Below, in pieces: positions 1 through 11,583 of a stretch of 11,583 bases of DNA. The stretch is from an uncultured Myxococcales bacterium. GTDB taxonomy: Bacteria > Myxococcota_A > Bradymonadia > REDH01. Position 1 is the stretch's first letter. Each line of letters opens with the position of its first letter. The notes under the pieces are model-generated. The model had not been told where the DNA came from. It was given only the letters and a program-made list of their open reading frames with translations, and did not search any database. The stretch covers positions 1 through 11,583 of the forward strand of contig CBDUJZ010000161.1 of assembly GCA_965367675.1 (NCBI GenBank). Direction: 5' to 3'. A program made the position numbers and the translations under genes.

Positions 1-3000
1 GCGCCATCGGCCGCTTTGCTCCGCTGCCGCTGATGCGCAGACGCCAGCCGCTGGTCGATGTTTCGCAGCACCGGCGCGATCTCCTGCCCCAGGCTCGGCG
101 TCGGCCGGTTCAGGCTCGAGGCGATGGCGTCGAGCTTGGCCAGCAGCGGCCCCGTCCACGCCGATGGGTCCGCCGCCGGCGCCGGTCGACTAGCCACTGC
201 GGCATCGGCAATCGTGGTCTGAATGCCCTGCACACCCTGGATGAGTCCACCCATCGCGCCCGTCATCCGACTCACCGGGTCATCCTCCGCGCCGCCCATC
301 ATCTTGCGACGCGCGAACTCAGCCTTGATGCCCTCCCAACGCGTCTTCTCCTCGGCGGACATCGTGCCGCGCATCTCGGCGAGCTTGAGCAGGTTCTGCT
401 CGGCCCCCACGGTCAGCGTCTGAGACTCGCCCAGGTAGTGGTCCGTGAGCAGCGCCTGCACCTCTTTTTCGTTCATCGCCGGCACGATCTTCTCGGCGAT
501 TTTGTTCATGTTTCGATAGCTGCCCTGGAGCTGGAACTTGGGCTCCGTGCGGTACTCGTCGGCCTGCGCAGCCGAGCGGATGTACTGCAGGTTGACGGCC
601 AGCAGCAGGTCGCGCGCGGCGAACATATGACGCAGCACACCCTGCATCTCGGCGAGCTCCACAGCGCTGTACGCGTGGCTCAGCTCGCTGGTCTGCACCT
701 GCTTGCCCTGCGCCATCTCGACGATGCGATACGTGTCCTCGAGCCCGCGCGCGGCGAGCGGCGCGAGCACCGGGTTCGACGTGAGCGCGTTCTCCACATA
801 GCTCAGCGCGAACTGCTCCTCGCGCCCGTCGAGCACATCGCCCAAGTTGTACGTGTCCGCGCGGTTAGCGAGCATGTCCGGGATTTGAAACTTGTCGCCC
901 GACTCCGTGTACGGGTTGCCCGCCATGACGACGATGAACTTCTTGCCCCGCAGGTCGTACGTCCGCGTCTTGCCGTTCCACACACCCTCGATGCGGCGCG
1001 TGGCGTCGCACAGCGAGATGAACTTCTGCAGGAACTCGGGGTGCGTGTGCTGGATGTCGTCCAGGTACAGCATCACGTTGCTGCCCATCTCGAACGCCAG
1101 GTTCACCTTGAGGACTTCTTGCCGCGCGGTGGCGTTGGGCGCCTCGTCCGGGTCGAGCGAATGCACACCGTGGCCGAGCGACGGGCCGTTGATCTTCATG
1201 AAGACCAAGCCGAGCCGATTGGCCACGTACTCCATGAGCGTGGTCTTACCGTAGCCGGGCGGCGAGATGAGCAGCAGCAGGCCCATCAGGTCGGTGCGTT
1301 TTGCCGCGCCGAGCGCACCGATTTGCTTGGCCAAGTTGTCGCCGATGATCGGCAAATACACTTCGTTAATCAGGCGGTTACGGACGAACGAGCTCATCAC
1401 GCGCGGCATGTACTCGTCGAGCCGCAGGCGCTCCCGTTCGCGCTCCACCAGCGCCTGTCGCATGGCCCGGTACGCCCGGTAGGCCGGCACGCGCTCCCGC
1501 ACGAACTGACGCAGTCGCCCCAAGAACTCATCGAGCCGCAACGACATCGTCTGCGACGCGATCCGAGGGTGTTGCCCCAGCAGACCCTCCACCTTCGCGG
1601 TGAGCGACGCGCTGCTCGTCTCACGCTCCAAACGTGAGCCGGTGAGCAGCAGCGCAGCCGCCTCAGGGACCGCGTGCGCCATGGCGGAGAACGCGCTCCC
1701 CGGCGCGCCAACCAACGCGCGCAGCCACGCCAGCGCCACCTCGACCTGGTCGGCGACGCGGCCCTCCAGCTGGCCCAAGTCGTCTTCCAAAACCGCGCGT
1801 CCGCCGTGGCCATCCAGGTGCTTGTGCAGCCCCTCGACGAGCGCCACCGCGTCCGCGCTCGTCGCGAACCGCGGGCGGTCGTTCATCAGCTCTTCGACCA
1901 GGTACGCGCCGGCGTCATGCGCGTCCTCAACGCGTGGCCAGCTCGCGCCGGGCGAGGCGTCGACCAGCTCTGCATCCTCGACCCACGCCGCGATCGCGGT
2001 GCCAATATCCTGCGCCAGCTCGCGCTGCACTTCGCTCTCGCTGAACGCGTCTCGCACCCGTCGAGCGTTGCGCGCGCGGCGCTCCCAAGCGTCCCGCAGC
2101 TTCGCATTCTCGTCCGCATCCAACACGGCCCAGAACAGACACGCCAGCGCGCGCGGCCCCGCACCAAACCGCAGCAGACCGGCGTGCTGTCGCAGCTGCA
2201 GCACCTTCTGCAAAATCAGCGTCGCGTCGGCGTCATGCAGACCCCGCTCGTAGCCCTCGTCATACCGCTGACCGGCCTCGTCGCGGACCAACTTCGACAG
2301 CCCGTCTGAAGACAGCGCAGCCTCTCGCAGCGACGCCATCGACGCACCGCCGATGCCCCCCTCGGCCGCGAAAAGCAGCGTCGCAGCCAGGTACTCGCCC
2401 CGGTACACCTCGGGCGTCTCCGACACCAAGTTCTGCCCCCAAAACGCGCGCGTCTCCAGGAACTCCGGGTCCGAGATCATCTCGTAGAACCCCGTGCCAC
2501 CCAGGTGCAGCGCCATGGCGCCTTCTTTAGGTACCACGGTCAGGTCCAGCGGCTGCGTGTTCACGCTGAACTTGTGCTTGCCGAGCTTGATCGTGTTCGC
2601 GCCGTCTTCGAACAAATCGGCGCGATCGCGCTGGCCGCGCATGGCGTCCTGACGCGTCGACTTGAGCTTCGAGAGCAGCTCATCGGCTTTGACGCTGTCG
2701 CCCAGATCGCGCAGCTGCTCCGCCACTTGGCGCAGCTTCATCACCATCGGATCAGCGGCAAAATACGCGTTGAGCGCGTCCGCTCCGTCTGCCGCGGCGC
2801 TCCGGCGCGCCACGCTCGACATGATACGCTCCGCCGCTCCGACCAGGCTCTCCACCCGCCGCTGACGCTGCTCCAGCAGAGTCTGCTTCTTGGCCTCGAA
2901 CGCGTCCACGACCTCGCCGCGCTTCACGGCCAGGTCGGTCAGGTACTCGTCGAACTCACTGAAGCGCCCTTCCAACTCTTCGAGCTGCAGCAACAGCCGC

Positions 3001-5183
3001 GACAGCTGCTCGTCGCACTTCTCCGGCGAATCGCTCAGCGACAGACCGCTCTGCACCGTCTGGCCGAACAGCGTGAACTGCGCGCCGAACTCCGCGCGGC
3101 CTTCGCGACCCGCGATCTCCTTGCGGTGCGCTTCCAACGTGGCGCGCACGCGGTTCACCTGACCGAACACCTCGCTCACCCCTTCCAGGATGGTGGTGCG
3201 CGCGGTCGGGTCGTCAACCTCAAGGCCAGCGATGACCTCGCTGAGCACCTCGAGTCCGGTGCCGACCTTGTCGATCTCGTCTCGAATCGCGTTCGCGTCA
3301 GACGTCTTCTCGATCGTCTTGATCGCCGCCTCTTGCTTGGTCAGCGACGCTACGAGCGGGGCCAACGACTCGGCGCCGAGCATGAACTTCACGCACGCGT
3401 GGCTCACCTCGTCGAACTTCGCGACGGTCTGCTCTTCGAGCGCGTCGATGCGCGCCAGGTCCACGTAACGAATGTCGCGCAGCGTGATCAGCTGCCCGCG
3501 GTGCGTCCGCAGTCCAGACAGCGCTTCCATGAAACCTTGCACAGACTTCAGGCTGTCCGGCAGCACGCGGTCCACGGCCTCCACGTGTCTCGCGGAGGCC
3601 TCCTGCAGCGCCACGCTGGCCTGCCGCTGGAGCGCGACCACCTTCTCGAACTCGTCGACGATGAGCTCAGACGTCCGGTTGATGCTCTCCAGCGTCTCCG
3701 CCAGCCCCTCCGCCTCGGGCGACCCGAGCCAGTAGAAGTTGTCGAGCATGCGCCGGTTGGCCGAGATCAGGTCCTCGTACAGCCGCCGCGTCGGCGTCGC
3801 GTTGTCGATCATGCGGGCGATCGACAGCCCCTCCGAGATGCCTCGCACCAGCTCCGGGTTGCCGATGCGCGTGTAAAACGAGTCCTCCGTGGGGGCGCTC
3901 GCCGCGAACTCGGCCGTCACGAACGGCGTGGTCCACACCTGCATCGGGTGCACGCGCGTGGGCTCCTGAATCTCGGAGCGGAACACCACCAGGCGGCCGT
4001 CGTCGAACAGCGAGTAGCCGTTGCACACCAACTGCGCCTGCACCTCTTTGCGGATCAGATTGTACGGCAGCAGCAGGTAGCGGCCCTCGGTGGCCGTGTA
4101 GAACACGTACAGCACGTCTTCGCCGTTGGGCGACTTGACCTGCGCATGGAACTGAAGCCCCGAGGGCGCCTCGCCGAAAATCTTGTGGTCGCCGGACTGC
4201 AGATAATAGCCGCCCGGGAAGATGATGCCGTGCTCTTCCGGCAACTCCAGACACGCGTGACCGATGGCGTCGATGCGCTTCACCGACTGCGCGCGCGGGT
4301 TGTACACAAGGTGCCGCCACACCTCTTCGTTATAGGGGCGCACGCGCACCAAAATGAGCCCGCCAATCTTGGCGTACTCGATGCGCGCGTCGTCCAGCGT
4401 CTGGTTCGCGTCGTTGACCGGCTCAGCGTAAATGCCCTTGCCGTCCTCGGTGTTGTTCTCGATCTTGACCGTCAGGTCGCCGCCCACCGCCTCGACGAAC
4501 AGCTCGTCCAGAATCGACACGTGGGGATGCCGCCCCGCCACATGATCCTCGCGCGTGGTAGCGATCCACGAGAACGAGTGGGAGGCCGAGAACACGTGGT
4601 CGCGCTCACCGCGGTTGTCCACGTATTGCGGCCGCCCGTCCGGCATCACGTTCCAGCGGAACACGCGCAGGTCGCGGTCGCCCTTGCCGTAGCGGAACAC
4701 CGCCAGCAGCTTGCCGTCACGCGCGCGCAGCTGCTCCAACTCCGTCTCGCGATAGTACTTGTACAGCTCGCCGAAGTCCTTTCGGAACGCCGGGTCGGCC
4801 AGGAAACCGCCGGCCGAGGTGTCCATATCACCGACCGGGAACTCGATGCCCTCCGGCGTCTCCTCCATCGTGTGCACGCTGAACACATCGCCCAGCGCCA
4901 CGTCCTGCTTGAGGCCGAGCAACACGTTGTAGCCGAACAGCAAATTGCCGCCCACGTGCAGGATGTCGCGCGGCAGACAGTTGTGCTCCGTGCGGACGCG
5001 GCTCTGCGCGCGCACGGCCAGCTCACTGGAGCCGAACGCTTCGGTGCGGGCGGTGTTCAGCCGCTCCGCGGACGTGGCCAGCGTCTGGCCAAGCGCGACT
5101 AGGCGCGCACGGATTACGTCGTAGTTGCCGGCGTCAATGCCGTCCGGCGACACGCTTCCTTCAACTTCGGGATCGGCGCTCAT
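1..5183 (-). CDS. Giant protein with a C-terminal MoxR/CbbQ-like AAA+ ATPase domain; at least 1727 codons in the window, 3' end runs off the left edge (no stop seen)
   Basis: Translating the minus strand by hand from the ATG at 5183..5181 (MSADPEVEGSV...) gives one open frame all the way to position 1. It is absent from the ORF track only because it has no stop in the window. All other minus ORFs listed in 1-5183 are in the other two frames. An in-frame TAA lies 10 codons upstream (5213..5211). Walker A is ...LLLISPPGYGKTTLMEYV... (plus-strand ccgcccggctacggtaagacc reverse-complemented at ~1240-1262; Lys at about aa 1313). Walker B is ...VMLYLDDIQHTHPEF... (~1052-1075). A MoxR-type segment ...KKFIVVMAGNPYTESGDKFQIPDMLANRADTYNLGD... 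parallels MoxR ...[26 protein letters not shown].... The ~1150 aa N-terminal to the ATPase contain a beta-rich stretch (RVFRWNVMPDG..., GYYLQSGDHKIFGE...) followed by a long helical, coiled-coil-like stretch. A further ~350 aa follow the ATPase and continue out of the window. Confidence 0.85.
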   Translation of the reverse strand, partial: MSADPEVEGSVSPDGIDAGNYDVIRARLVALGQTLATSAERLNTARTEAFGSSELAVRAQSRVRTEHNCLPRDILHVGGNLLFGYNVLLGLKQDVALGDVFSVHTMEETPEGIEFPVGDMDTSAGGFLADPAFRKDFGELYKYYRETELEQLRARDGKLLAVFRYGKGDRDLRVFRWNVMPDGRPQYVDNRGERDHVFSASHSFSWIATTREDHVAGRHPHVSILDELFVEAVGGDLTVKIENNTEDGKGIYAEPVNDANQTLDDARIEYAKIGGLILVRVRPYNEEVWRHLVYNPRAQSVKRIDAIGHACLELPEEHGIIFPGGYYLQSGDHKIFGEAPSGLQFHAQVKSPNGEDVLYVFYTATEGRYLLLPYNLIRKEVQAQLVCNGYSLFDDGRLVVFRSEIQEPTRVHPMQVWTTPFVTAEFAASAPTEDSFYTRIGNPELVRGISEGLSIARMIDNATPTRRLYEDLISANRRMLDNFYWLGSPEAEGLAETLESINRTSELIVDEFEKVVALQRQASVALQEASARHVEAVDRVLPDSLKSVQGFMEALSGLRTHRGQLITLRDIRYVDLARIDALEEQTVAKFDEVSHACVKFMLGAESLAPLVASLTKQEAAIKTIEKTSDANAIRDEIDKVGTGLEVLSEVIAGLEVDDPTARTTILEGVSEVFGQVNRVRATLEAHRKEIAGREGRAEFGAQFTLFGQTVQSGLSLSDSPEKCDEQLSRLLLQLEELEGRFSEFDEYLTDLAVKRGEVVDAFEAKKQTLLEQRQRRVESLVGAAERIMSSVARRSAAADGADALNAYFAADPMVMKLRQVAEQLRDLGDSVKADELLSKLKSTRQDAMRGQRDRADLFEDGANTIKLGKHKFSVNTQPLDLTVVPKEGAMALHLGGTGFYEMISDPEFLETRAFWGQNLVSETPEVYRGEYLAATLLFAAEGGIGGASMASLREAALSSDGLSKLVRDEAGQRYDEGYERGLHDADATLILQKVLQLRQHAGLLRFGAGPRALACLFWAVLDADENAKLRDAWERRARNARRVRDAFSESEVQRELAQDIGTAIAAWVEDAELVDASPGASWPRVEDAHDAGAYLVEELMNDRPRFATSADAVALVEGLHKHLDGHGGRAVLEDDLGQLEGRVADQVEVALAWLRALVGAPGSAFSAMAHAVPEAAALLLTGSRLERETSSASLTAKVEGLLGQHPRIASQTMSLRLDEFLGRLRQFVRERVPAYRAYRAMRQALVERERERLRLDEYMPRVMSSFVRNRLINEVYLPIIGDNLAKQIGALGAAKRTDLMGLLLLISPPGYGKTTLMEYVANRLGLVFMKINGPSLGHGVHSLDPDEAPNATARQEVLKVNLAFEMGSNVMLYLDDIQHTHPEFLQKFISLCDATRRIEGVWNGKTRTYDLRGKKFIVVMAGNPYTESGDKFQIPDMLANRADTYNLGDVLDGREEQFALSYVENALTSNPVLAPLAARGLEDTYRIVEMAQGKQVQTSELSHAYSAVELAEMQGVLRHMFAARDLLLAVNLQYIRSAAQADEYRTEPKFQLQGSYRNMNKIAEKIVPAMNEKEVQALLTDHYLGESQTLTVGAEQNLLKLAEMRGTMSAEEKTRWEGIKAEFARRKMMGGAEDDPVSRMTGAMGGLIQGVQGIQTTIADAAVASRPAPAADPSAWTGPLLAKLDAIASSLNRPTPSLGQEIAPVLRNIDQRLASAHQRQRSKAADG

Positions 5184-5232
5184 CGAGACCTGCTTTCTGC
5201 GCAATAAAAGTTAGCGACCGGGCGTACGCGTC

Positions 5233-5262
5233 CGACGGAGCCCCCATGCGGAGCCCCCGTCG
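5233..5262. repeat. Intergenic structured element: direct repeat CGGAGCCCCC-atg-CGGAGCCCCC flanked by inverted arms CGACGG/CCGTCG
   Basis: Direct repeats at 5236-5245 and 5249-5258. The 6-bp inverted arms are at 5233-5238 and 5257-5262. It lies in the 93-nt gap between the flotillin stop (5277) and the giant ORF start (5183). Confidence 0.4.
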
Positions 5263-5276
5263 AGACGCCTGCGCGC

Positions 5277-7376
5277 TCAGTCGATGCCGAGCTCTTTCGC
5301 CTTCTCCATCAGCGCAGCGAGCTTGGCCGAGTCGACCTCTCCGGACTTGGAGGCGAGCTTGGCGAGCAGCGCCGTCACCGACAGGTTCTTGAGCGTCTCC
5401 GAGTTCTCGGACGCGCCCGCCAGCAGGCCCTTCACGTCGTCGCGCAGGTTCGAATCGCCGTCCAGGTAGCCGCCGAGCACCTTCTGCGCCGTCGGCGAAG
5501 TCTCCATCACGTTGTCCATGGCGTTGCTCACACTCATGGCCTTGACGAACTTGTCGAAGAACTGGCCGTCGCCGCCCACGATCTGGATCTTGGCCTCCTC
5601 GAACGCCTTGCCCATGACCGCCGCTTGGTGCTCCGCCATACGCTCCTGCGTGAGCAGCTGCGCCAGCGCGATCTCCTTCTGTTGCTCCAAACGGATGCGG
5701 TATTCCTCGTGCTCGCGACCCGCGCCGTCCAGCTCGAGCATCGCCTTCGCCTTCTCGCGCAGACCGCTCGCCTCGGCGACCAGTCGCTTCTCGATCGCGT
5801 CGGCCTCGGCCACACCGCGACGCTCGATGGTCTGCGCTTCGGCCTCGTCCACACGAATCCGCGCCATGCCCTTGGCTTCGGTGCCCTCGGCCTCGGCGCT
5901 CATCGTCTCGCGCGTCACCTTAGCCTCGGCCATGCCCTGCTTCTCGATCGCCATCGCGTTGGCTTCCTTGACCTTGACCTCGGCCAGGCCCTGCGCGGCG
6001 ACCTCGGCCTGCACACCCTCGGCCAGGCGAATCTTGCCCTTGGCCAGCGCGTCGGCGGCCTCCAGCTCGGCCTCGGCACCAATGATGCGCTCTTGCGCCT
6101 GGTGCTTGGCGACCTGTTGCGACGCCTCGGCCGCTTTGATCGCCTTGACCAGCTCGGCCTGCGCGTCACCTTCGGCGGTCACAACCTTGGCGTCCTTGTG
6201 ACGCGTCGCGTCCGCCACGAGCCGCAGGTCTTTGATGCGCTCCTCTTCTTCGGCGACGGTCTTGTCGACGGCGATACGCGCGCGCACCACGTCGGCGATC
6301 TCCTTCTTCTCGCGCTCGAGTTCCTTCTCCTTGGCGATGCGCATCAGCTCGACCTCGCGCTCACGCTCGATCTGCTTCAGGTCCTCCGCCTTTTGCACCT
6401 CGACGGTCTCCATCACCACGATACGCTCGCGCTGCTTGGTCGCCACGTCGATGTTGCGCTGCATCTCTTGCTCGCGCTTCTTGACCTCTTCTTGGGCCAC
6501 TTGGCGCGCCAGCTCGGTCTCCTTGGACTCAGAGATCTTGTAGCGGCTCGCCTCGTTCTGCTCGCGGGTCTGCGCCACGTCGATCTCGCGGGCCTTGCGG
6601 GCCTCGGCCTCGGCGCGCTGCTGGTCGTAGCGGAACACAGCCTCGTCGGCGGTCAGGTCCTGCTGACCGATGTCCATCCGCTCTTTCTGCTTCAGCTCGT
6701 TCGTCTGCACGTTCTGCGCCGCGGTCATCTCGGTGATCTTCCGGATGCCCTGCGCGTCGAGAATGTTGGAGGGGTCGAGCCGGTTCAGCGGCGTCTGCTC
6801 CAGGTAGTCGATGGCCGCGTCCTCGAGCACGTAGCCGTTCAGGTCCTTGCCGATGACCGAGATGATGTCGTCTCGGAACTCGTCCCGCTTGGTGTACAAC
6901 TCCTCGAATTGCAGCCGCTTACCGACCGTCTTGAGCGCCTCGGAGAACTTGGCGGCGAACAGCGTCTCGAGCGTGGCGTGGTCCGACGCGCGCTGGCAGC
7001 CGATCGACTGCGCGACCTTGAGCACGTCCTCACCCGTCTTGTTCACCCGAACGAAGAACGTGACCTTGATATCGGCGCGGATGTTGTCCTCGCAGATCAG
7101 GCCGTCCTCGCCGCGTCGGTCGACCTCGATGGTCTTGACGGAGATATCCATGATCTCCGCGCGGTGAATGATGGGCAGCACGGTCGCGCCGGTGAACGTG
7201 ACGGTCGGCTCCGCCTTCATCGTGTTCACGATGAGCGCCTTGCCCTGGTCCACCTTGCGGTAAAACTGAGCGACCATCGCGAGCAGGCCCACGACGAGCA
7301 CAGCCACGACAGCGACGATCAACAGCGCGGCTTGCGCGAGAGTGCTTAGAGCGAAGAAGAAGATGGGTGCAGACAT
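5277..7376 (-). CDS. Flotillin family protein (SPFH/band-7 domain, YqiK/FloT-like), 699 aa
   Basis: ATG at 7376..7374 with a GAGG motif ~10 nt upstream on the minus strand. N-terminal hydrophobic membrane anchor (MSAPIFFFALSTLAQAALLIVAVVAVLVVGLLAMV). SPFH core: ...TVLPIIHRAEIMDISVKTIEVDRRGEDGLICEDNIRADIKVTFFVRVNKTGEDVLKVAQSIG.... Then a long charged coiled-coil with Glu/Ala-rich 'EA repeat' region (EAELEAADALAKGKIRLAEGVQAEVAAQG...) and a C-terminal tail. The overall architecture matches what I recall of E. coli YqiK and B. subtilis FloT. Stop TGA at 5279..5277. Confidence 0.9.
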   Translation of the reverse strand: MSAPIFFFALSTLAQAALLIVAVVAVLVVGLLAMVAQFYRKVDQGKALIVNTMKAEPTVTFTGATVLPIIHRAEIMDISVKTIEVDRRGEDGLICEDNIRADIKVTFFVRVNKTGEDVLKVAQSIGCQRASDHATLETLFAAKFSEALKTVGKRLQFEELYTKRDEFRDDIISVIGKDLNGYVLEDAAIDYLEQTPLNRLDPSNILDAQGIRKITEMTAAQNVQTNELKQKERMDIGQQDLTADEAVFRYDQQRAEAEARKAREIDVAQTREQNEASRYKISESKETELARQVAQEEVKKREQEMQRNIDVATKQRERIVVMETVEVQKAEDLKQIEREREVELMRIAKEKELEREKKEIADVVRARIAVDKTVAEEEERIKDLRLVADATRHKDAKVVTAEGDAQAELVKAIKAAEASQQVAKHQAQERIIGAEAELEAADALAKGKIRLAEGVQAEVAAQGLAEVKVKEANAMAIEKQGMAEAKVTRETMSAEAEGTEAKGMARIRVDEAEAQTIERRGVAEADAIEKRLVAEASGLREKAKAMLELDGAGREHEEYRIRLEQQKEIALAQLLTQERMAEHQAAVMGKAFEEAKIQIVGGDGQFFDKFVKAMSVSNAMDNVMETSPTAQKVLGGYLDGDSNLRDDVKGLLAGASENSETLKNLSVTALLAKLASKSGEVDSAKLAALMEKAKELGID

Positions 7377-7466
7377 GATTCGCGACCTCGTTTGGGAGAG
7401 CGAAGGCGAGCGGACTAGCGGCTCGACTCGGAACGTAAGTGTTTGTTTTCAAGAACGATTCGGGAC

Positions 7467-7478
7467 AGCCCGCGGGCT
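7467..7478. promoter_or_regulatory. Perfect 12-bp GC palindrome AGCCCGCGGGCT immediately 3' of the nfeD-like stop codon, followed on the minus strand by an AT-rich patch containing TTGAAA
   Basis: Self-complementary 12-mer at 7467-7478. The nfeD-like stop is 7484..7482. Plus 7438-7456 (gtgtttgttttcaagaacg) is unusually AT-rich for this sequence; its reverse complement contains TTGAAA. Confidence 0.3.
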
Positions 7479-7481
7479 ATC

Positions 7482-8327
7482 TCACGACTTCCGGGGGCTC
7501 GACCGGCTTTGCACCGGCGCCGTCTCAGCGGCCTCGACGCCGGCGTCACGGACAATGGCATCCAGGGCGGCCAGCTCGGCCTCGAGATCCCCGTCGCCAT
7601 CCGACGCCACAAAGTGGTCCATCGACTCGATCTGGTAGGCTTCTTCGCCCGCCACATACTCGACCACAAGCGCGGCATCTCCACGCTTGAGGGTGTTGGG
7701 TTCGGCGCACCGCACCTCGATGAGCAGCCCGGCGCCGCCATCGCGGACCTCGGCCTGGCCAAACGTCTCGGTCACGCGGCCGGTGCGTACCTCGCAGACC
7801 ACGCCCACGGAGTCGGCGCGCGACGCGGCCTCCTGCGTCTCGAACAGCTTACCGAGCGGACGAACGCTGCGCTTGGTGAGGGGCACGGCGATGCCGATGG
7901 AGAGCAGGAATGTGACCGACGCGATGACCGATGCGGGAAGCGCGAGCTCGGCGCGGGCCGCGAAGTGCATGCACAGGAAGCTGGCGATCCAGCACCAGAG
8001 CACCAGCACGGAGAGCACGACCGTCGCGGGCGCTTTGTCGAGCGCCAGCGCGTGCACCACATGCCACGTAAAGCTGTGGGAGCCTTGGCCGCTGCCGACG
8101 CCCTCGGCACCATCGAGCGCACCGTCGGCGCCCTCCAATGCACCGTCCAAAGCGCCGTCGACGGCACCATCCACGCCACCGTCCAGCACGCCGTCCAGGT
8201 CGAAATCCAGCGACTCGACACCGATGGCGCCCGCGATGACGAACAGCCAGTAGAGGACGATCAGCCCCATCAGAACCGTGAAGATTCCGGTCGGGAGTGT
8301 CAGCATCTCTGTGAGCAGCGGGCTCAT
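7482..8327 (-). CDS. NfeD-like / YqiJ-like inner-membrane protein (N-terminal TM helices, C-terminal OB-fold), ~281 aa
   Basis: ATG at 8327..8325; the track's first 'M' at 8330 is a TTG. Two hydrophobic segments (GIFTVLMGLIVLYWLFVIAGAIG; TVVLSVLVLWCWIASFLCM... VIASVTFLLSIGIAV). The C-terminal beta-rich segment ...GVVCEVRTGRVTETFGQAEVRDGGAGLLIEVRCAEPNTLKRGDAALVVEY... is typical of the NfeD short-form OB-fold. It sits directly upstream of a flotillin gene, as in yqiJ-yqiK and nfeD-floT pairs. Stop TGA at 7484..7482. Confidence 0.8.
   Translation of the reverse strand: MSPLLTEMLTLPTGIFTVLMGLIVLYWLFVIAGAIGVESLDFDLDGVLDGGVDGAVDGALDGALEGADGALDGAEGVGSGQGSHSFTWHVVHALALDKAPATVVLSVLVLWCWIASFLCMHFAARAELALPASVIASVTFLLSIGIAVPLTKRSVRPLGKLFETQEAASRADSVGVVCEVRTGRVTETFGQAEVRDGGAGLLIEVRCAEPNTLKRGDAALVVEYVAGEEAYQIESMDHFVASDGDGDLEAELAALDAIVRDAGVEAAETAPVQSRSSPRKS
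8100..8210 (-). repeat. Period-12 nt imperfect tandem repeat (about 8 units) inside the nfeD-like CDS, encoding (x-h-D-G)n
   Basis: Plus-strand units ggcaccatcgag / cgcaccgtcggc / gccctccaatgc / accgtccaaagc / gccgtcgacggc / accatccacgcc / accgtccagcac / gccgtccaggtc. They translate on the minus strand to DLDGVLDGGVDGAVDGALDGALEGADGALDGAEG, sitting between TM1 and TM2 of the NfeD-like protein. Confidence 0.55.
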
Positions 8328-8381
8328 CAAGGTCCAGGAAGAAGCGGAGAACGAAACGGGGGAGCGGTGACCGGGTCGAGA

Positions 8382-8786
8382 TTACTCGGGCGTGCGGTGA
8401 TCGATGGAGACCGAGTTGATGCAGAAGCGCACGCCCGTCTCGGTGGGGCCGTCGTTGAACACGTGACCCAGGTGAGCGTCGCAGCTGGCGCAGGTGACCT
8501 CGGTGCGCGTCATGCCGTGGCTGACGTCTTCGATGAACTTCACCGAGCCCTCGACCGCGCGGTCGAACGAAGGCCAACCGCAGTGCGCATCAAACTTGGT
8601 GTCCGACGTAAACAGCAGCGCGTCGCAGCAGATGCAGCGGTACGTGCCGTCCTCGAACTGGTTCCAGTACTTGCCGGTAAACGGCCGCTCGGTCGCCGCG
8701 TTCTGCGTGACTTCGAATGCGAGGTCGCCCAGACGTTCGCGCAACGCGGACGTGGCGGACGGAATGGAACGGGTGTCGTCACTCAT
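8382..8786 (-). CDS. msrB: Peptide-methionine (R)-S-oxide reductase MsrB, 134 aa
   Basis: Internal ATG at 8786..8784, preceded by a strong SD: AAGGAG (plus 8793-8798 reverse-complemented) with a 6-nt spacer. The track's 215-aa version extends upstream without support. Both zinc CxxC pairs are present ([11 protein letters not shown] and [13 protein letters not shown]). The resolving-Cys motif HCGWPSF and the catalytic-Cys motif [11 protein letters not shown] are the SelR/MsrB hallmarks. Stop TAA at 8384..8382. Confidence 0.92.
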
Positions 8787-8954
8787 CGGATGCTCCTTTG
8801 TTCTTGAGGTGACAGAATACATGGGCGCGGCCGCGATCGCACTCGTGGCAGCCCCCACGCGCAACGGCTCTACGGGCCAAGGGATTCGCGGCGTGAGAGG
8901 GTTGTGTGCGGGGGACATGTTGGCCTCGGTGATCCGCGGTTGCCCTCCTACCTC

Positions 8955-8969
8955 GCAACGTCCGTGCCA
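8955..8969 (-). promoter_or_regulatory. Candidate sigma-54 (RpoN) -24/-12 promoter driving the msrB-nfeD-flotillin-AAA+ gene string
   Basis: The reverse complement of plus 8951-8970 is TTGGCACGGACGTTGCGAGG, i.e. TGGCACG-N4-TTGC. This matches the RpoN consensus TGGCAC-N5-TTGC with exact GG/GC spacing. Predicted TSS is near plus 8943, giving a ~157-nt leader before the msrB ATG at 8786. It lies in the divergent intergenic region shared with a GAFTGA-containing bEBP gene. Confidence 0.55.
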
Positions 8970-9029
8970 AACTGCGCATCCCCGCGTTTGCTGGGGAAAC
9001 CCCGCCGAAGGATGCTGCGGACCACACAA

Positions 9030-9040
9030 CGTGTTACACG
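9030..9040. promoter_or_regulatory. 11-bp palindrome CGTGTtACACG, a candidate enhancer (UAS) or autoregulatory operator
   Basis: Perfect inverted repeat with 5-bp arms around a central T. It is centred ~92 bp upstream of the predicted sigma-54 TSS and ~35 bp upstream of the activator's own ATG. A related half-site GTCACAC recurs at 9056-9062. Confidence 0.3.
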
Positions 9041-9070
9041 GAATAACCGAAACCCGTCACACTGCGTAAC

Positions 9071-10870
9071 ATGCTTCAATCCAACGTATTGCTCCGGGAC
9101 GTGCTCCCCATCGCGCGCACGCACACCGACGGCGCGGTCGCCGGACATGTGAAGGCCGAGCTGTCGAGTCGGCTGGAGTTGGACGGGGTGCCGGTGGATA
9201 CGGTCGACGCGTTCTGCCAGGCGTTCGAGGTGTTCTCCCGCGCGCTGATCTCGGCGTCGATCCCGACCATCTATGGCCCGGAGTTCGCGGAGACCCTGGC
9301 CAGCATTCTATTCGGGCGCGACCCGCTGCTCACGCTCCTGAGCCCGCAGCTGCCCAACCGCCGCATCCTGATCGTGGGCGAGCGCGGCACTGGAAAGGAG
9401 TCGGTCGCCCGCGTGCTCAGCGCCGGCCTCGCCGCCTTTGGCGGCGGCCGCCCGGTGGTGGCGGTCAACGCGGCCGCGCTCCCGGACACGCTGCTCGAGT
9501 CGACGCTGTTCGGGCACGTGCGGGGTGCGTTCACCGGCGCGACTCGGGCGCGCACGGGGCTCATGTCGGAGCTGCATCCCGGCGGCGTGTTGTTCTTCGA
9601 CGAGGCGGGCGAAGCGTCGCCCGCGCTGCAGGCCAAGCTGCTGCGGGTGTTCCAGACCGGCGAGTACGCCCCCGTGGGCGCGCCCGAGGCACCGTCGCGG
9701 GCCGACTATCACGTGGTCGCCGCCACCAACGCCCCGCTCAAGGCGCTGCAGCTCGGCACCGCCATGCGCGCGGACCTGTTCGACCGCCTCGCCGCGCCGC
9801 TGATCGAGCTGCCGCCGCTGCGCACGTTGCTGCACGACCAAACGCGGGGCCGCGCCATCTTCCAGTGTCTGGCGATGGGCGTGATTCGGGAACTCGGCGC
9901 GACCGGGCGGACCGGCGCCGGCACGCCATCTGTGGTCCGCCGCGCGGGCGACCGGCGGGAGATCAACTTTGAGCTGTGGGCGACCCCGCGCGCCGCCCGA
10001 ATCGCCCGGAGCGTTCAAGAAGGCACCCAGGGCTACGCGTGGCCCGGCAACCTGCGCGAGGCGGCGCAGCGCATCCGTCAAACGCTGTTCATGGGCTCGG
10101 CGGCGCTCAGACCGACGAACCATCGCGCGGCAAGCGCGGCGCCCAAACCACCCGCAAACGCCATCGTGTTGACGGTGCCGGAGTCCGGCACGTTGAAGAC
10201 ACAATTGGAGGCCGCCGAGCGCCAACTGTACGCCCGCGCGGCCACGCAGCACGAGTCGATCATCGCGGTCGCCGATGCGCTCGGGGTCGCCCGGCAAACG
10301 GCATCCCGGCGCCTGAGCTACTTCGAGATCCCGGCGCCTGGTAGTTCGACCGATACGCCGACGAGCACGCCCCACGCCACCGTCCCGATGCCCACCCGAA
10401 GGCCGCTCGGCACGCCCAACGCCACCAACCACCCGGGCTCGGACGCCATGGGTCATCGCCCGCCGGACGCGTCCGTGTCGGCAGCGGTGTTCTCGCCGTT
10501 CACCGCGCCGCGCATCTCCCGCCGCTTGCTGGCGATTATGGAGCGCAGCGCGCCGCAACCGGACAACCTGACGGCAGCCGTGGTCATGCACGCCGAGGCG
10601 CTGCGCGCGGCGGTCGGCGACTATCCGTTTGTGGACCTCAAGCTCGTTTCGTCCATCGAGCACACGCTGCTGGAGCTCATCAACGACATCCTGCCGTCGC
10701 ACTCTGAACCCCACGTCCGGCTGGTGGCCGCTGCGGTCGCCTACTTTGTGGAGGTCGACGACGAGGACCACGACCTGTCGTCCGCGATCGGGCTGGATGA
10801 CGACGTGCGGGTGGTGAACGAGGTGGCCCGTGTGTTGGGGCGCGACGACCTGGAGATCCGCGTGGAGTGA
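9071..10870 (+). CDS. Sigma-54-dependent transcriptional activator (bEBP) with atypical architecture: no receiver/sensor N-domain, AAA+ sigma-54 domain, Fis-type HTH, then a P/T/S-rich linker and an extra acidic C-terminal domain
   Basis: ATG at 9071; in-frame TAA at 9044-9046; no obvious SD. Walker A is ILIVGERGTGKESVARVL (9361-9400). The GAFTGA loop is ESTLFGHVRGAFTGATRARTG (GAFTGA at nt 9524-9541). Walker B is GVLFFDEAGEASPALQAKLLRVFQTGEYAPVG. Sensor I is HVVAATNAPL. R-finger region is DLFDRLAAPLIELPPLR. Sensor II is YAWPGNLREAAQRI. The Fis-like HTH is ...HESIIAVADALGVARQTASRRLSYFEI at about aa 385-425. After it come a low-complexity stretch (PAPGSSTDTPTSTPHATVPMPTRRPLGTPNATNHPGSD) and a ~120-aa domain ending ...YFVEVDDEDHDLSSAIGLDDDVRVVNEVARVLGRDDLEIRVE. 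Only ~65 aa precede the AAA+ domain. Confidence 0.88.
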   Translation: MLQSNVLLRDVLPIARTHTDGAVAGHVKAELSSRLELDGVPVDTVDAFCQAFEVFSRALISASIPTIYGPEFAETLASILFGRDPLLTLLSPQLPNRRILIVGERGTGKESVARVLSAGLAAFGGGRPVVAVNAAALPDTLLESTLFGHVRGAFTGATRARTGLMSELHPGGVLFFDEAGEASPALQAKLLRVFQTGEYAPVGAPEAPSRADYHVVAATNAPLKALQLGTAMRADLFDRLAAPLIELPPLRTLLHDQTRGRAIFQCLAMGVIRELGATGRTGAGTPSVVRRAGDRREINFELWATPRAARIARSVQEGTQGYAWPGNLREAAQRIRQTLFMGSAALRPTNHRAASAAPKPPANAIVLTVPESGTLKTQLEAAERQLYARAATQHESIIAVADALGVARQTASRRLSYFEIPAPGSSTDTPTSTPHATVPMPTRRPLGTPNATNHPGSDAMGHRPPDASVSAAVFSPFTAPRISRRLLAIMERSAPQPDNLTAAVVMHAEALRAAVGDYPFVDLKLVSSIEHTLLELINDILPSHSEPHVRLVAAAVAYFVEVDDEDHDLSSAIGLDDDVRVVNEVARVLGRDDLEIRVE

Positions 10871-10894: not shown

Positions 10895-11583
10895 CTATCC
10901 GGCCACGCGCCACACCTCGGCGAACGGCGTCTGCGCGTAGGTCCCGCTGAACTCCACCACGTCGTCGGCCGTGAACCACAGGCCATCCGCGCCCGGGCCG
11001 TCGTAGGACACCATCGTCCGCAGGTTGCCCGACCGGTCGAACGTGCGCGTGGTGTAGTCATCCAGCTCATCGTCGCCGGTGCCCCAAACGCCGTCCGCGC
11101 CCGGTCCGTCCAGCGTCGCATCGAAACGCAGGCCGCCATTTTCGTCGATGTCGCGAATGCGACCGAAGCCGATCACGTCGTCCGCGGTAAACGGGATCCC
11201 GTCGTCGCCGAGCGCAACGGTGTGCCGTTCGATGTACCGGGTGGCGGACGTGTACTCCCACGCGATCGCGCCACCGCCGCCCACGAGGAACGTGTCGTCG
11301 TCGGTGAGCCAGATGCCGTCGGCGCCTGGATCGCTGCTGATGCCAAACCGGATGACGCGCCCTTCATCGTCGAGCTCCTGCCAGTCGACGCGCGAAATCG
11401 TGTCGTCCCCGGGGCTGTTCCCGCAGTCCGAGGTATCCCAGGTCTCGTCGGGCCCCCAATCGCTGTGGTGCACGGTGCCTTCAATAGACTCCCCTACCGG
11501 TCCAGCATCGGCGTCGGCGACGGTATCCGGCGAGGCGTCGCCGGGGACATCTAGGTCGCCGGTGTCGCCACCGATCACGTCGG
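10895..11583 (-). CDS. Asp/Gly/Trp-rich tandem-repeat protein, probably secreted or surface and Ca-binding-like; C-terminal 229 codons only (5' end outside window)
   Basis: Minus-strand frame stays open to the right window edge; the 'M' at 11578 in the track is an internal GTG. A ~35-40 aa repeat recurs at least four times: DPGADGIWLTDDD / GDDGIPFTADD / DGPGADGVWGTGDDELDD / DGPGADGLWFTADD. One EF-hand-like DxDxNG loop is present (DIDENGG). Stop TAG at 10897..10895. Convergent with the bEBP gene, 24 nt apart. Confidence 0.6.
   Translation of the reverse strand, partial: DVIGGDTGDLDVPGDASPDTVADADAGPVGESIEGTVHHSDWGPDETWDTSDCGNSPGDDTISRVDWQELDDEGRVIRFGISSDPGADGIWLTDDDTFLVGGGGAIAWEYTSATRYIERHTVALGDDGIPFTADDVIGFGRIRDIDENGGLRFDATLDGPGADGVWGTGDDELDDYTTRTFDRSGNLRTMVSYDGPGADGLWFTADDVVEFSGTYAQTPFAEVWRVAG

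Follow-up and report, generated by a model that had tools for sequence, protein, structure and literature searches.

The window analysed here is a stretch of 11,583 nucleotides from an uncultured Myxococcales bacterium of the Bradymonadia (contig CBDUJZ010000161.1 of assembly GCA_965367675.1). It carries a gene for a sigma-54 activator, or bacterial enhancer-binding protein (bEBP), divergent from four collinear minus-strand genes for MsrB, a YqiJ/NfeD-like membrane protein, a flotillin-like protein and a giant DUF3686+AAA+ ATPase, as the preliminary description of this DNA had stated. The last three genes make up a cassette that has been described as associated with phage shock protein (Psp) systems. 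We conclude that the activator and a sigma-54 promoter in the intergenic region probably form a dedicated control unit, heading a PspA-less version of this Psp-associated cassette in a small Bradymonadia-like lineage. Activator and promoter are kept or lost together in relatives, and the switch is therefore very likely to be real.

A probable sigma-54 promoter facing the cassette

The preliminary description, made from the letters alone, had pointed to a TGGCACG-N4-TTGC element on the minus strand, and the match is exact (TGGCACGGACGTTGC, minus strand 8969..8955, directed at msrB). Such matches are expected 0.02 times per shuffled window, and one was found in 4 of 200 shuffles. The element combines GG-N10-GC spacing with the TGGCACG-N4-TTGC consensus, is intergenic and faces a gene. 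Scored with an RpoN weight matrix, it reaches 14.9 bits, the highest value in the 8787-9070 region and in the window as a whole (runner-up 10.4 bits). In related loci, 2.6 Mb of strand positions contain sites of at least 14 bits at a rate of 0.006 per kb per strand. Its upstream edge lies 101 bp from the activator start codon, within a 284-bp intergenic region bounded by the msrB ATG at 8786 and the activator ATG at 9071. Sigma-54 promoters start transcription 12 nt downstream of the -12 element, and on this geometry transcription would begin near 8943.

The predicted leader between this start and msrB (8787..8942) was considered as the site of an RNA element, which was rejected: it has no Rfam match and folds no better than shuffled sequences (z=-0.45). 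Neither a remnant of the ~236-aa first gene of some relatives (see below) nor one of msrB was found in it. Prediction across 5000-9200 gave neither a sigma-70-type promoter nor an intrinsic terminator, although the scan was of E. coli type, may not fit this lineage and is weak evidence.

The activator and the promoter are kept or lost together

Full-length orthologues of the activator are very rare, with three clusters at 55-59% identity among 5.8 billion proteins, plus a copy at locus L083. Every one of them (L083, L092/93, L094/95 and L096) is divergent from the cassette. In all five bEBP-bearing lineages, the window included, the shared intergenic region contains a site of 14-18 bits facing the operon; those of the four relatives read TGGCATGACCCTTGCG, TGGCACGCGACTTGCG, TGGCACGTACCTTGCT and TGGCACGGGCGTTGCT. 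With the five intergenic regions aligned at the site, conservation is confined to tTGGCAcG..c.TTGC, and the flanks have diverged.

The window's clade, defined by flotillin-like protein identity of 67-78% and with Bradymonadia as its nearest named source, also includes five loci without an intact bEBP (L082, L086-88, L089-91, L109 and L110). None of these has a site of even 10 bits upstream of the operon, so that the strong site is present in 5/5 loci with the bEBP versus 0/5 without it. At L082 (7441-7710), just the last ~60 codons of the bEBP remain, recognized by a profile of its C-terminal domain. The remnant abuts the region before the first operon gene and the promoter is gone too; apparently, the sigma-54 promoter and the remainder of the activator were lost in one deletion. 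The pattern across relatives supports the earlier proposal of a dedicated sigma-54 circuit with a PspF-like divergent layout.

The genes directly behind the promoter vary. In the window the promoter is followed by msrB, whereas in L083, L092 and L094 a gene for a ~236-aa membrane protein comes first and msrB second, and in L096 the promoter is followed directly by the YqiJ-like and then the flotillin-like gene, without msrB. The YqiJ-like/flotillin-like core is thus what is constant downstream of the promoter. Two points not made in the preliminary description emerge from these comparisons: judged by gene order, msrB is not the conserved target, since L096 lacks it, and sigma-54 control, as far as it can be read from promoter sequences, is limited to a small lineage. 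Within the window's clade, msrB is linked to the cassette both with and without the bEBP.

The additional, conserved membrane protein (~230-260 aa; L083 7791-8483, L092 9102-9812, L094 276-986 and L082 7710-8495) is absent from the window. It carries the motifs WLHGLLRFSSSCLSGTANG and WWPFGF and has no Pfam or PADLOC match. At L089 (7411-8565) and L110 (1139-2335), a gene for a TMEM43-family membrane protein occupies the activator's place, divergent from msrB, and there is no activator. L094, which comes from a relative that has the activator, carries a second strong sigma-54-type site (TGGCACGAAGACTGCA, 15.6 bits) at 12146-12161. The site precedes an unannotated 379-aa gene by ~65 bp, which suggests that sigma-54 promoters may be in broader use in the lineage.

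The activator has conserved domains on both sides of its core

The activator matches Pfam Sigma54_activat (PF00158) with E=2.5e-39. PDB sequence and fold searches returned PspF, NtrC1, ZraR and NifA, and the best fold matches are sigma-54 activators. Of the bEBP motifs listed in the preliminary description, GAFTGA, Walker A, Walker B and the arginine fingers are intact. Alignment with PspF and NifA places FFDE at Walker B, RADLFDRL in the arginine-finger region and WPGNLRE at sensor II, and R233, R239 and R329 are invariant in the orthologue alignment. Across nine relatives, the G, F, G and A of GAFTGA are invariant, while its A and T deviate in at most one sequence. The helix-turn-helix (HTH) is less clear-cut: the HTH_50 match of 24.5 bits falls just under the cut-off of 27, and residues 375-417 are modelled as three helices. 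Its ARQTASRR motif is conserved and, unusually, the HTH is not C-terminal.

The preliminary description had also implied that the activator is N-terminally minimal, as PspF is, and this was not upheld. A ~90-aa N-terminal domain and a ~110-aa C-terminal domain are conserved, and the N-terminus is confidently folded in the models. The PspF equivalog models TIGR02974 and NF008622 give 152.1 bits (cut-off 443.55) and 124 bits (cut-off 529), respectively, and the models for NorR, NifA and RtcR score the protein about as the PspF model does. Pfam finds no recognizable sensor domain in the activator. The N-terminal and C-terminal domains are likely to be the points at which a signal enters.

Neither Pfam nor a PDB fold search (best E=0.66) returned a match for the C-terminal domain. 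It belongs to an unannotated family of 783 representative clusters (E up to 1e-3), consisting mostly of stand-alone proteins of ~130 aa. Two large members, P0242 and P0246, combine it with modules resembling the RNA polymerase alpha-CTD and sigma-70 region 4. The domain is missing from all other bEBPs found, and shorter paralogues of the activator without it adjoin unrelated genes; distant stand-alone versions from metagenomes (among L100-L108) are not beside the cassette. Its motif, YF..D...D....IG..DD..V, may be DUF1232-like, a resemblance confirmed by no tool.

Candidate activator-binding sites

Two related repeats between the promoter and the activator gene are candidate upstream activating sequences (UAS; table 1). 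Their positions resemble the geometry of the PspF binding sites at pspF-pspA. The form GTTAC-N5-GTGAC occurs in only two independent places in 1.43 Mb of loci, the window and L096, in both cases between the start of the orthologous bEBP and its sigma-54 site. GTWAC pentamers number eight in the five divergent intergenic regions against 0.53 expected, an excess that is overstated because the background was taken from whole loci. The activator would probably bind these GTTAC-type repeats.

Gene content of the window

The coordinates of all features are collected in table 1. The window has a G+C content of 64-74%, and the long open reading frames (ORFs) on the plus strand opposite the true genes are antisense artefacts. 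Successive genes of the minus-strand string are separated by 51 bp (msrB to the YqiJ-like gene), 105 bp and 93 bp. The first gene behind the promoter, msrB, has an AAGGAG 7 nt before its ATG, and its product scores 173.4 bits with TIGR00357 (cut-off 113).

Table 1. Features of the window, with supporting evidence.
Feature	Position	Strand	Details
Giant DUF3686+DUF7902+AAA+ ATPase	1..5183	-	1946 aa, of which the first 1727 lie in the window
Flotillin-like (YqiK-type SPFH) membrane protein	5277..7376	-	699 aa; remote FloT/Band_7 similarity
YqiJ/NfeD-like membrane protein	7482..8330	-	282 aa; label from family matches and synteny
msrB, peptide-methionine (R)-S-oxide reductase	8382..8786	-	134 aa; SelR (Pfam) E=2.4e-48
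Predicted 5' leader of msrB	8787..8942	-	~157 nt
Predicted transcription start	8943	-	12 nt downstream of the C at -12; from standard geometry
Sigma-54 (-24/-12) element	8955..8969	-	TGGCACG-GACG-TTGC; GG at 8968-8967, GC at 8956-8955
Candidate UAS 2	9023..9037		GTAACACGTTGTGTG; centre ~-87 from predicted start; 33 bp from UAS 1 and related to it
Candidate UAS 1	9056..9070		GTTACGCAGTGTGAC; centre ~-120 from predicted start; abuts activator start codon
Sigma-54 activator (bEBP)	9071..10870	+	599 aa; Pfam/NCBIfam, PDB, orthologue alignment, AlphaFold models
N-terminal helical domain of activator	residues 1-90		conserved; predicted local distance difference test score (pLDDT) 82-93
AAA+ core of activator	residues ~97-345		
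Walker A	9377-9400	+	GERGTGKE
GAFTGA motif	9524-9541	+	
HTH of activator	10193-10321	+	residues 375-417
Linker of activator	residues 426-471		variable, disordered
C-terminal helical domain of activator	10502-10834	+	residues 478-588; conserved; five helices; predicted template modelling score (pTM) 0.82 in a model of the domain by itself

The labels 'flotillin' and 'nfeD' reflect remote similarity only, and neither the 282-aa nor the 699-aa protein of the window has a Pfam match. Residues 21-421 of the 699-aa protein match FloT with E=1e-5 and 24.9 bits, far under the cut-off of 700, and Band_7 matches six of 23 close relatives (best 7e-13). The protein has a hydrophobic N-terminus and a long stretch rich in E, A and K, and its homologues carry the name YqiK in the source databases. 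For the 282-aa protein, the YqiJ_N family matches four of 23 family members (best E=1e-3) and not the window protein itself. Profiles of the two families found no PDB sequence match. The giant protein matches PF12458 (E=1e-194), DUF7902 (E=4e-25) and AAA (E=3e-6) in Pfam; its full length is seen on the organism's one 17.8-kb contig (L081). The cassette was considered as an anti-phage defence system and set aside, having no PADLOC match. Beyond the activator, an ORF of at least 227 aa (10895-11578, minus strand; the called gene touches the contig end) contains repeated G(A/P)DG.W.T.DD motifs resembling calcium-binding repeats and has no Pfam or NCBIfam match.

The cassette across phyla

A profile of the 699-aa flotillin-like protein retrieved 80 genome loci. 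The cassette was recognized in all 80 of these sampled loci. Its trio of YqiJ-like, flotillin-like and DUF3686-AAA+ genes recurs across Myxococcota, Planctomycetota, Gamma- and Betaproteobacteria and Actinobacteria, and so in four phyla or more, with the gene order of the window in ~70 of the 80 loci. In most loci the YqiJ-like gene immediately precedes the flotillin-like gene, and DUF3686-AAA+ comes after the latter in ~70. None of the 80 has msrB beside the cassette, and the single locus with a bEBP nearby has an unrelated one: that of Labilithrix (L014) has neither a sigma-54 site nor the C-terminal domain and was taken as coincidental.

We also considered whether sigma-54 control is a general property of the cassette. 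In the 2 kb upstream of 76 loci, the best sites of the operon strand did not outscore those of the opposite one, and sites of at least 12 bits numbered seven and six, respectively. Because there is no enrichment on the operon strand, sigma-54 control is not general to the cassette. The strong sites at L060 and L067 lie inside coding regions and were taken as chance matches rather than promoters. In the Bradymonadales locus L056, a 16.5-bit site (5026-5041) is located 1.2 kb upstream of the cassette, before two small genes; no bEBP lies within 7 kb, and some bases close by are masked in the contig. Chance might account for this site, or it might represent a second, independent case of a sigma-54 link.

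A dyad of DUF2170 and PspA genes stands directly upstream of the cassette in 13 of the 80 loci, all from Proteobacteria, and one of 12 loci with this arrangement has a sigma-54-like site upstream. The loci with DUF2170 (YjfI/BacA-like) and PspA genes in this position include L044, L049, L053, L058, L060, L062, L065-L067, L072, L076 and L080; in L060 a TelA-like gene precedes the pair. L012 (7001-7618) and L037 (7001-7486) have a partial flotillin-like copy (the N-terminal ~200 residues) just before the full-length gene. The Pfam label of DUF3686, 'ATPase involved in DNA repair', fits poorly with its constant membrane-protein neighbours, and no mention of DUF3686 was found in the literature searched.

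A proposed mechanism and its alternatives

We propose that sigma-54 RNA polymerase would bind the -24/-12 element, and that the divergent GAFTGA activator, probably bound to the GTTAC-type repeats ~87 and ~120 bp upstream, would spend ATP to open the promoter. Transcription from ~8943 would extend across msrB and on into the three cassette genes, so that the whole string is presumably co-transcribed, perhaps in response to a membrane or oxidative stress signal. The conserved target would be the YqiJ-like/flotillin-like core, a membrane-maintenance cassette without PspA in this lineage, while msrB and, in relatives, the ~236-aa membrane protein would be variable passengers at the front of the operon.

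Several points weigh against this proposal. The RpoN weight matrix is our own approximation of published frequencies, and the five bEBP lineages are interrelated and so not fully independent. Candidate UAS are clear only in the two closest lineages, and the best UAS-related elements of L092 and L094 lie downstream of the promoter. With E. coli RpoN as the query, rpoN was not found on any locus examined, including the organism's 17.8-kb contig, and our search of the literature found nothing on sigma-54 in Bradymonadales. Internal promoters may precede the YqiJ-like gene, and most other phyla have the cassette on its own; these include the Actinobacteria, which are not known to have sigma-54.

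This last point bears on the idea that promoter and activator serve mainly msrB, or whichever gene is promoter-proximal, in a response to oxidative stress, with the cassette genes transcribed from a promoter of their own. The cassette must have its own promoters in most phyla because it is a free-standing unit there; msrB is indeed first behind the promoter in the window, and 51 bp separate it from the YqiJ-like gene. Yet L096 has activator and promoter directly before the YqiJ-like and flotillin-like genes, with no msrB, and L083, L092 and L094 have a different first gene. Moreover, loci that lack both activator and promoter still have msrB linked to the cassette, and no terminator is predicted after msrB. 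We consider this explanation distinctly unlikely. Less probable still is that the -24/-12 match is a chance occurrence or a relic, with the bEBP serving a distant target and its divergence incidental. Sigma-54-like sites of 14-16 bits do arise by chance within genes elsewhere, as at L060 and L067, and the cassette-adjacent bEBP of Labilithrix has no such site nearby. By chance, a stretch of 284 bp would hold ~0.001 such sites on one strand, whereas all five orthologous regions have one, and only the -24/-12 bases are conserved in them. L082 has lost activator and site together, and the five same-clade loci without the activator are also without the site.

By analogy with PspF, which PspA inhibits, the activator could be constitutively active and inhibited in trans, with one of the operon's products, or a PspA from elsewhere in the genome, as the inhibitor. 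The divergent layout and the positions of the candidate UAS resemble pspF-pspA, the activator is without a recognizable sensor domain, and the cassette is tied to PspA in Proteobacteria, both in our 13 loci and in published work (PMC11237479). The conserved extra domains at both ends of the activator, its scores far under the PspF equivalog cut-offs and the lack of a PspA gene in the window or on the 17.8-kb contig all speak against such a circuit, which we regard as rather unlikely. We hold a related idea to be about as doubtful: the C-terminal domain, as a general transcription-coupled sensor or adaptor, might read the assembly state of the flotillin/YqiJ/AAA+ complex and so close a PspF-like loop that is independent of PspA. 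An idle complex could, for example, sequester the domain, and membrane damage could release it.

Relation to known systems

The closest parallel in layout is PspF-pspABCDE of E. coli, in which a bEBP gene is likewise divergent from a single sigma-54 promoter ~100 bp away. PspF regulates its own expression, and the candidate upstream sites of the window would overlap the activator's own 5' region, which would permit autoregulation here as well. In both cases the target is a membrane-maintenance operon, and the cassette of the window is itself a Psp-associated module (PMC11237479). Unlike pspABCDE, the operon of the window lacks PspA, PspB and PspC (neither the window nor the 17.8-kb contig encodes a PspA_IM30 protein), and the activator is not a PspF orthologue, carrying an N-terminal and an orphan C-terminal domain that PspF lacks. 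In layout and functional neighbourhood the analogy with PspF is good; it breaks down over family membership and the idea of a minimal activator.

The cassette was described by Ravi et al. (2024, mSystems) as a Psp-associated unit of band-7/flotillin, YqiJ/YuaF and a beta-propeller AAA+ ATPase, linked to a CesT/Tir-PspA dyad in some Proteobacteria, and 'abbreviated operons' without PspA were reported to be widespread (PMC11237479). Because the cassette had already been described in this way, the analogy with PspF has an evolutionary basis. The window has the same three genes in the same order. It differs in having msrB and a sigma-54 promoter in front, together with a dedicated activator, and in lacking the DUF2170(CesT/Tir-like)-PspA dyad of Proteobacteria; the published description links the cassette to neither a bEBP nor sigma-54 (PMC11237479).

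The yuaFGI/floT operon of Bacillus subtilis is induced by SigW, an envelope-stress sigma factor. Operons of NfeD-like and flotillin genes are well known (Hinderhofer et al. 2009; PMC2636767), and both yuaFGI/floT and E. coli yqiJK resemble the window in having the NfeD-like gene directly upstream of the SPFH2/flotillin gene (PMC2636767). They differ in lacking a giant AAA+ gene and in having no reported sigma-54 control, and the window proteins are only remotely similar to theirs. No paper pairing sigma-54/RpoN with flotillin/SPFH regulation was found in the literature searched, in agreement with the preliminary description, which held that flotillin operons are not classically sigma-54 controlled. 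The bacABCDEF operon of Pseudomonas aeruginosa (PA3732-PA3729 plus two more genes) comes near in one respect, as a Psp-like operon (DUF2170 and a PspA homologue) for which a sigma-54 site ahead of the first gene was proposed on sequence grounds; an adjacent bEBP is not reported (PMC10948618). We considered it as a homologue of the cassette and rejected this, since the paper's description sets it apart as a yjfIJ-type operon (DUF2170/YjfI plus a PspA homologue; PMC10948618).

Implications

The flotillin/YqiJ/giant-AAA+ cassette is widespread and uncharacterized. A switch-like sigma-54 circuit with a single target offers an experimental handle on it, and the trigger of the activator would reveal when the cassette is needed. 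The scope is narrow, covering a few uncultured Bradymonadia-like lineages, and the switch combines known parts in a lineage-specific way and does not amount to a new type of system. Within that scope, the case shows how PspF-style control can be acquired by a Psp-associated membrane module without PspA, and it adds a bEBP architecture with an uncharacterized domain behind the HTH. If the C-terminal domain does read the assembly state of the flotillin complex, this lineage would have built a PspA-independent, PspF-like feedback loop for membrane stress.

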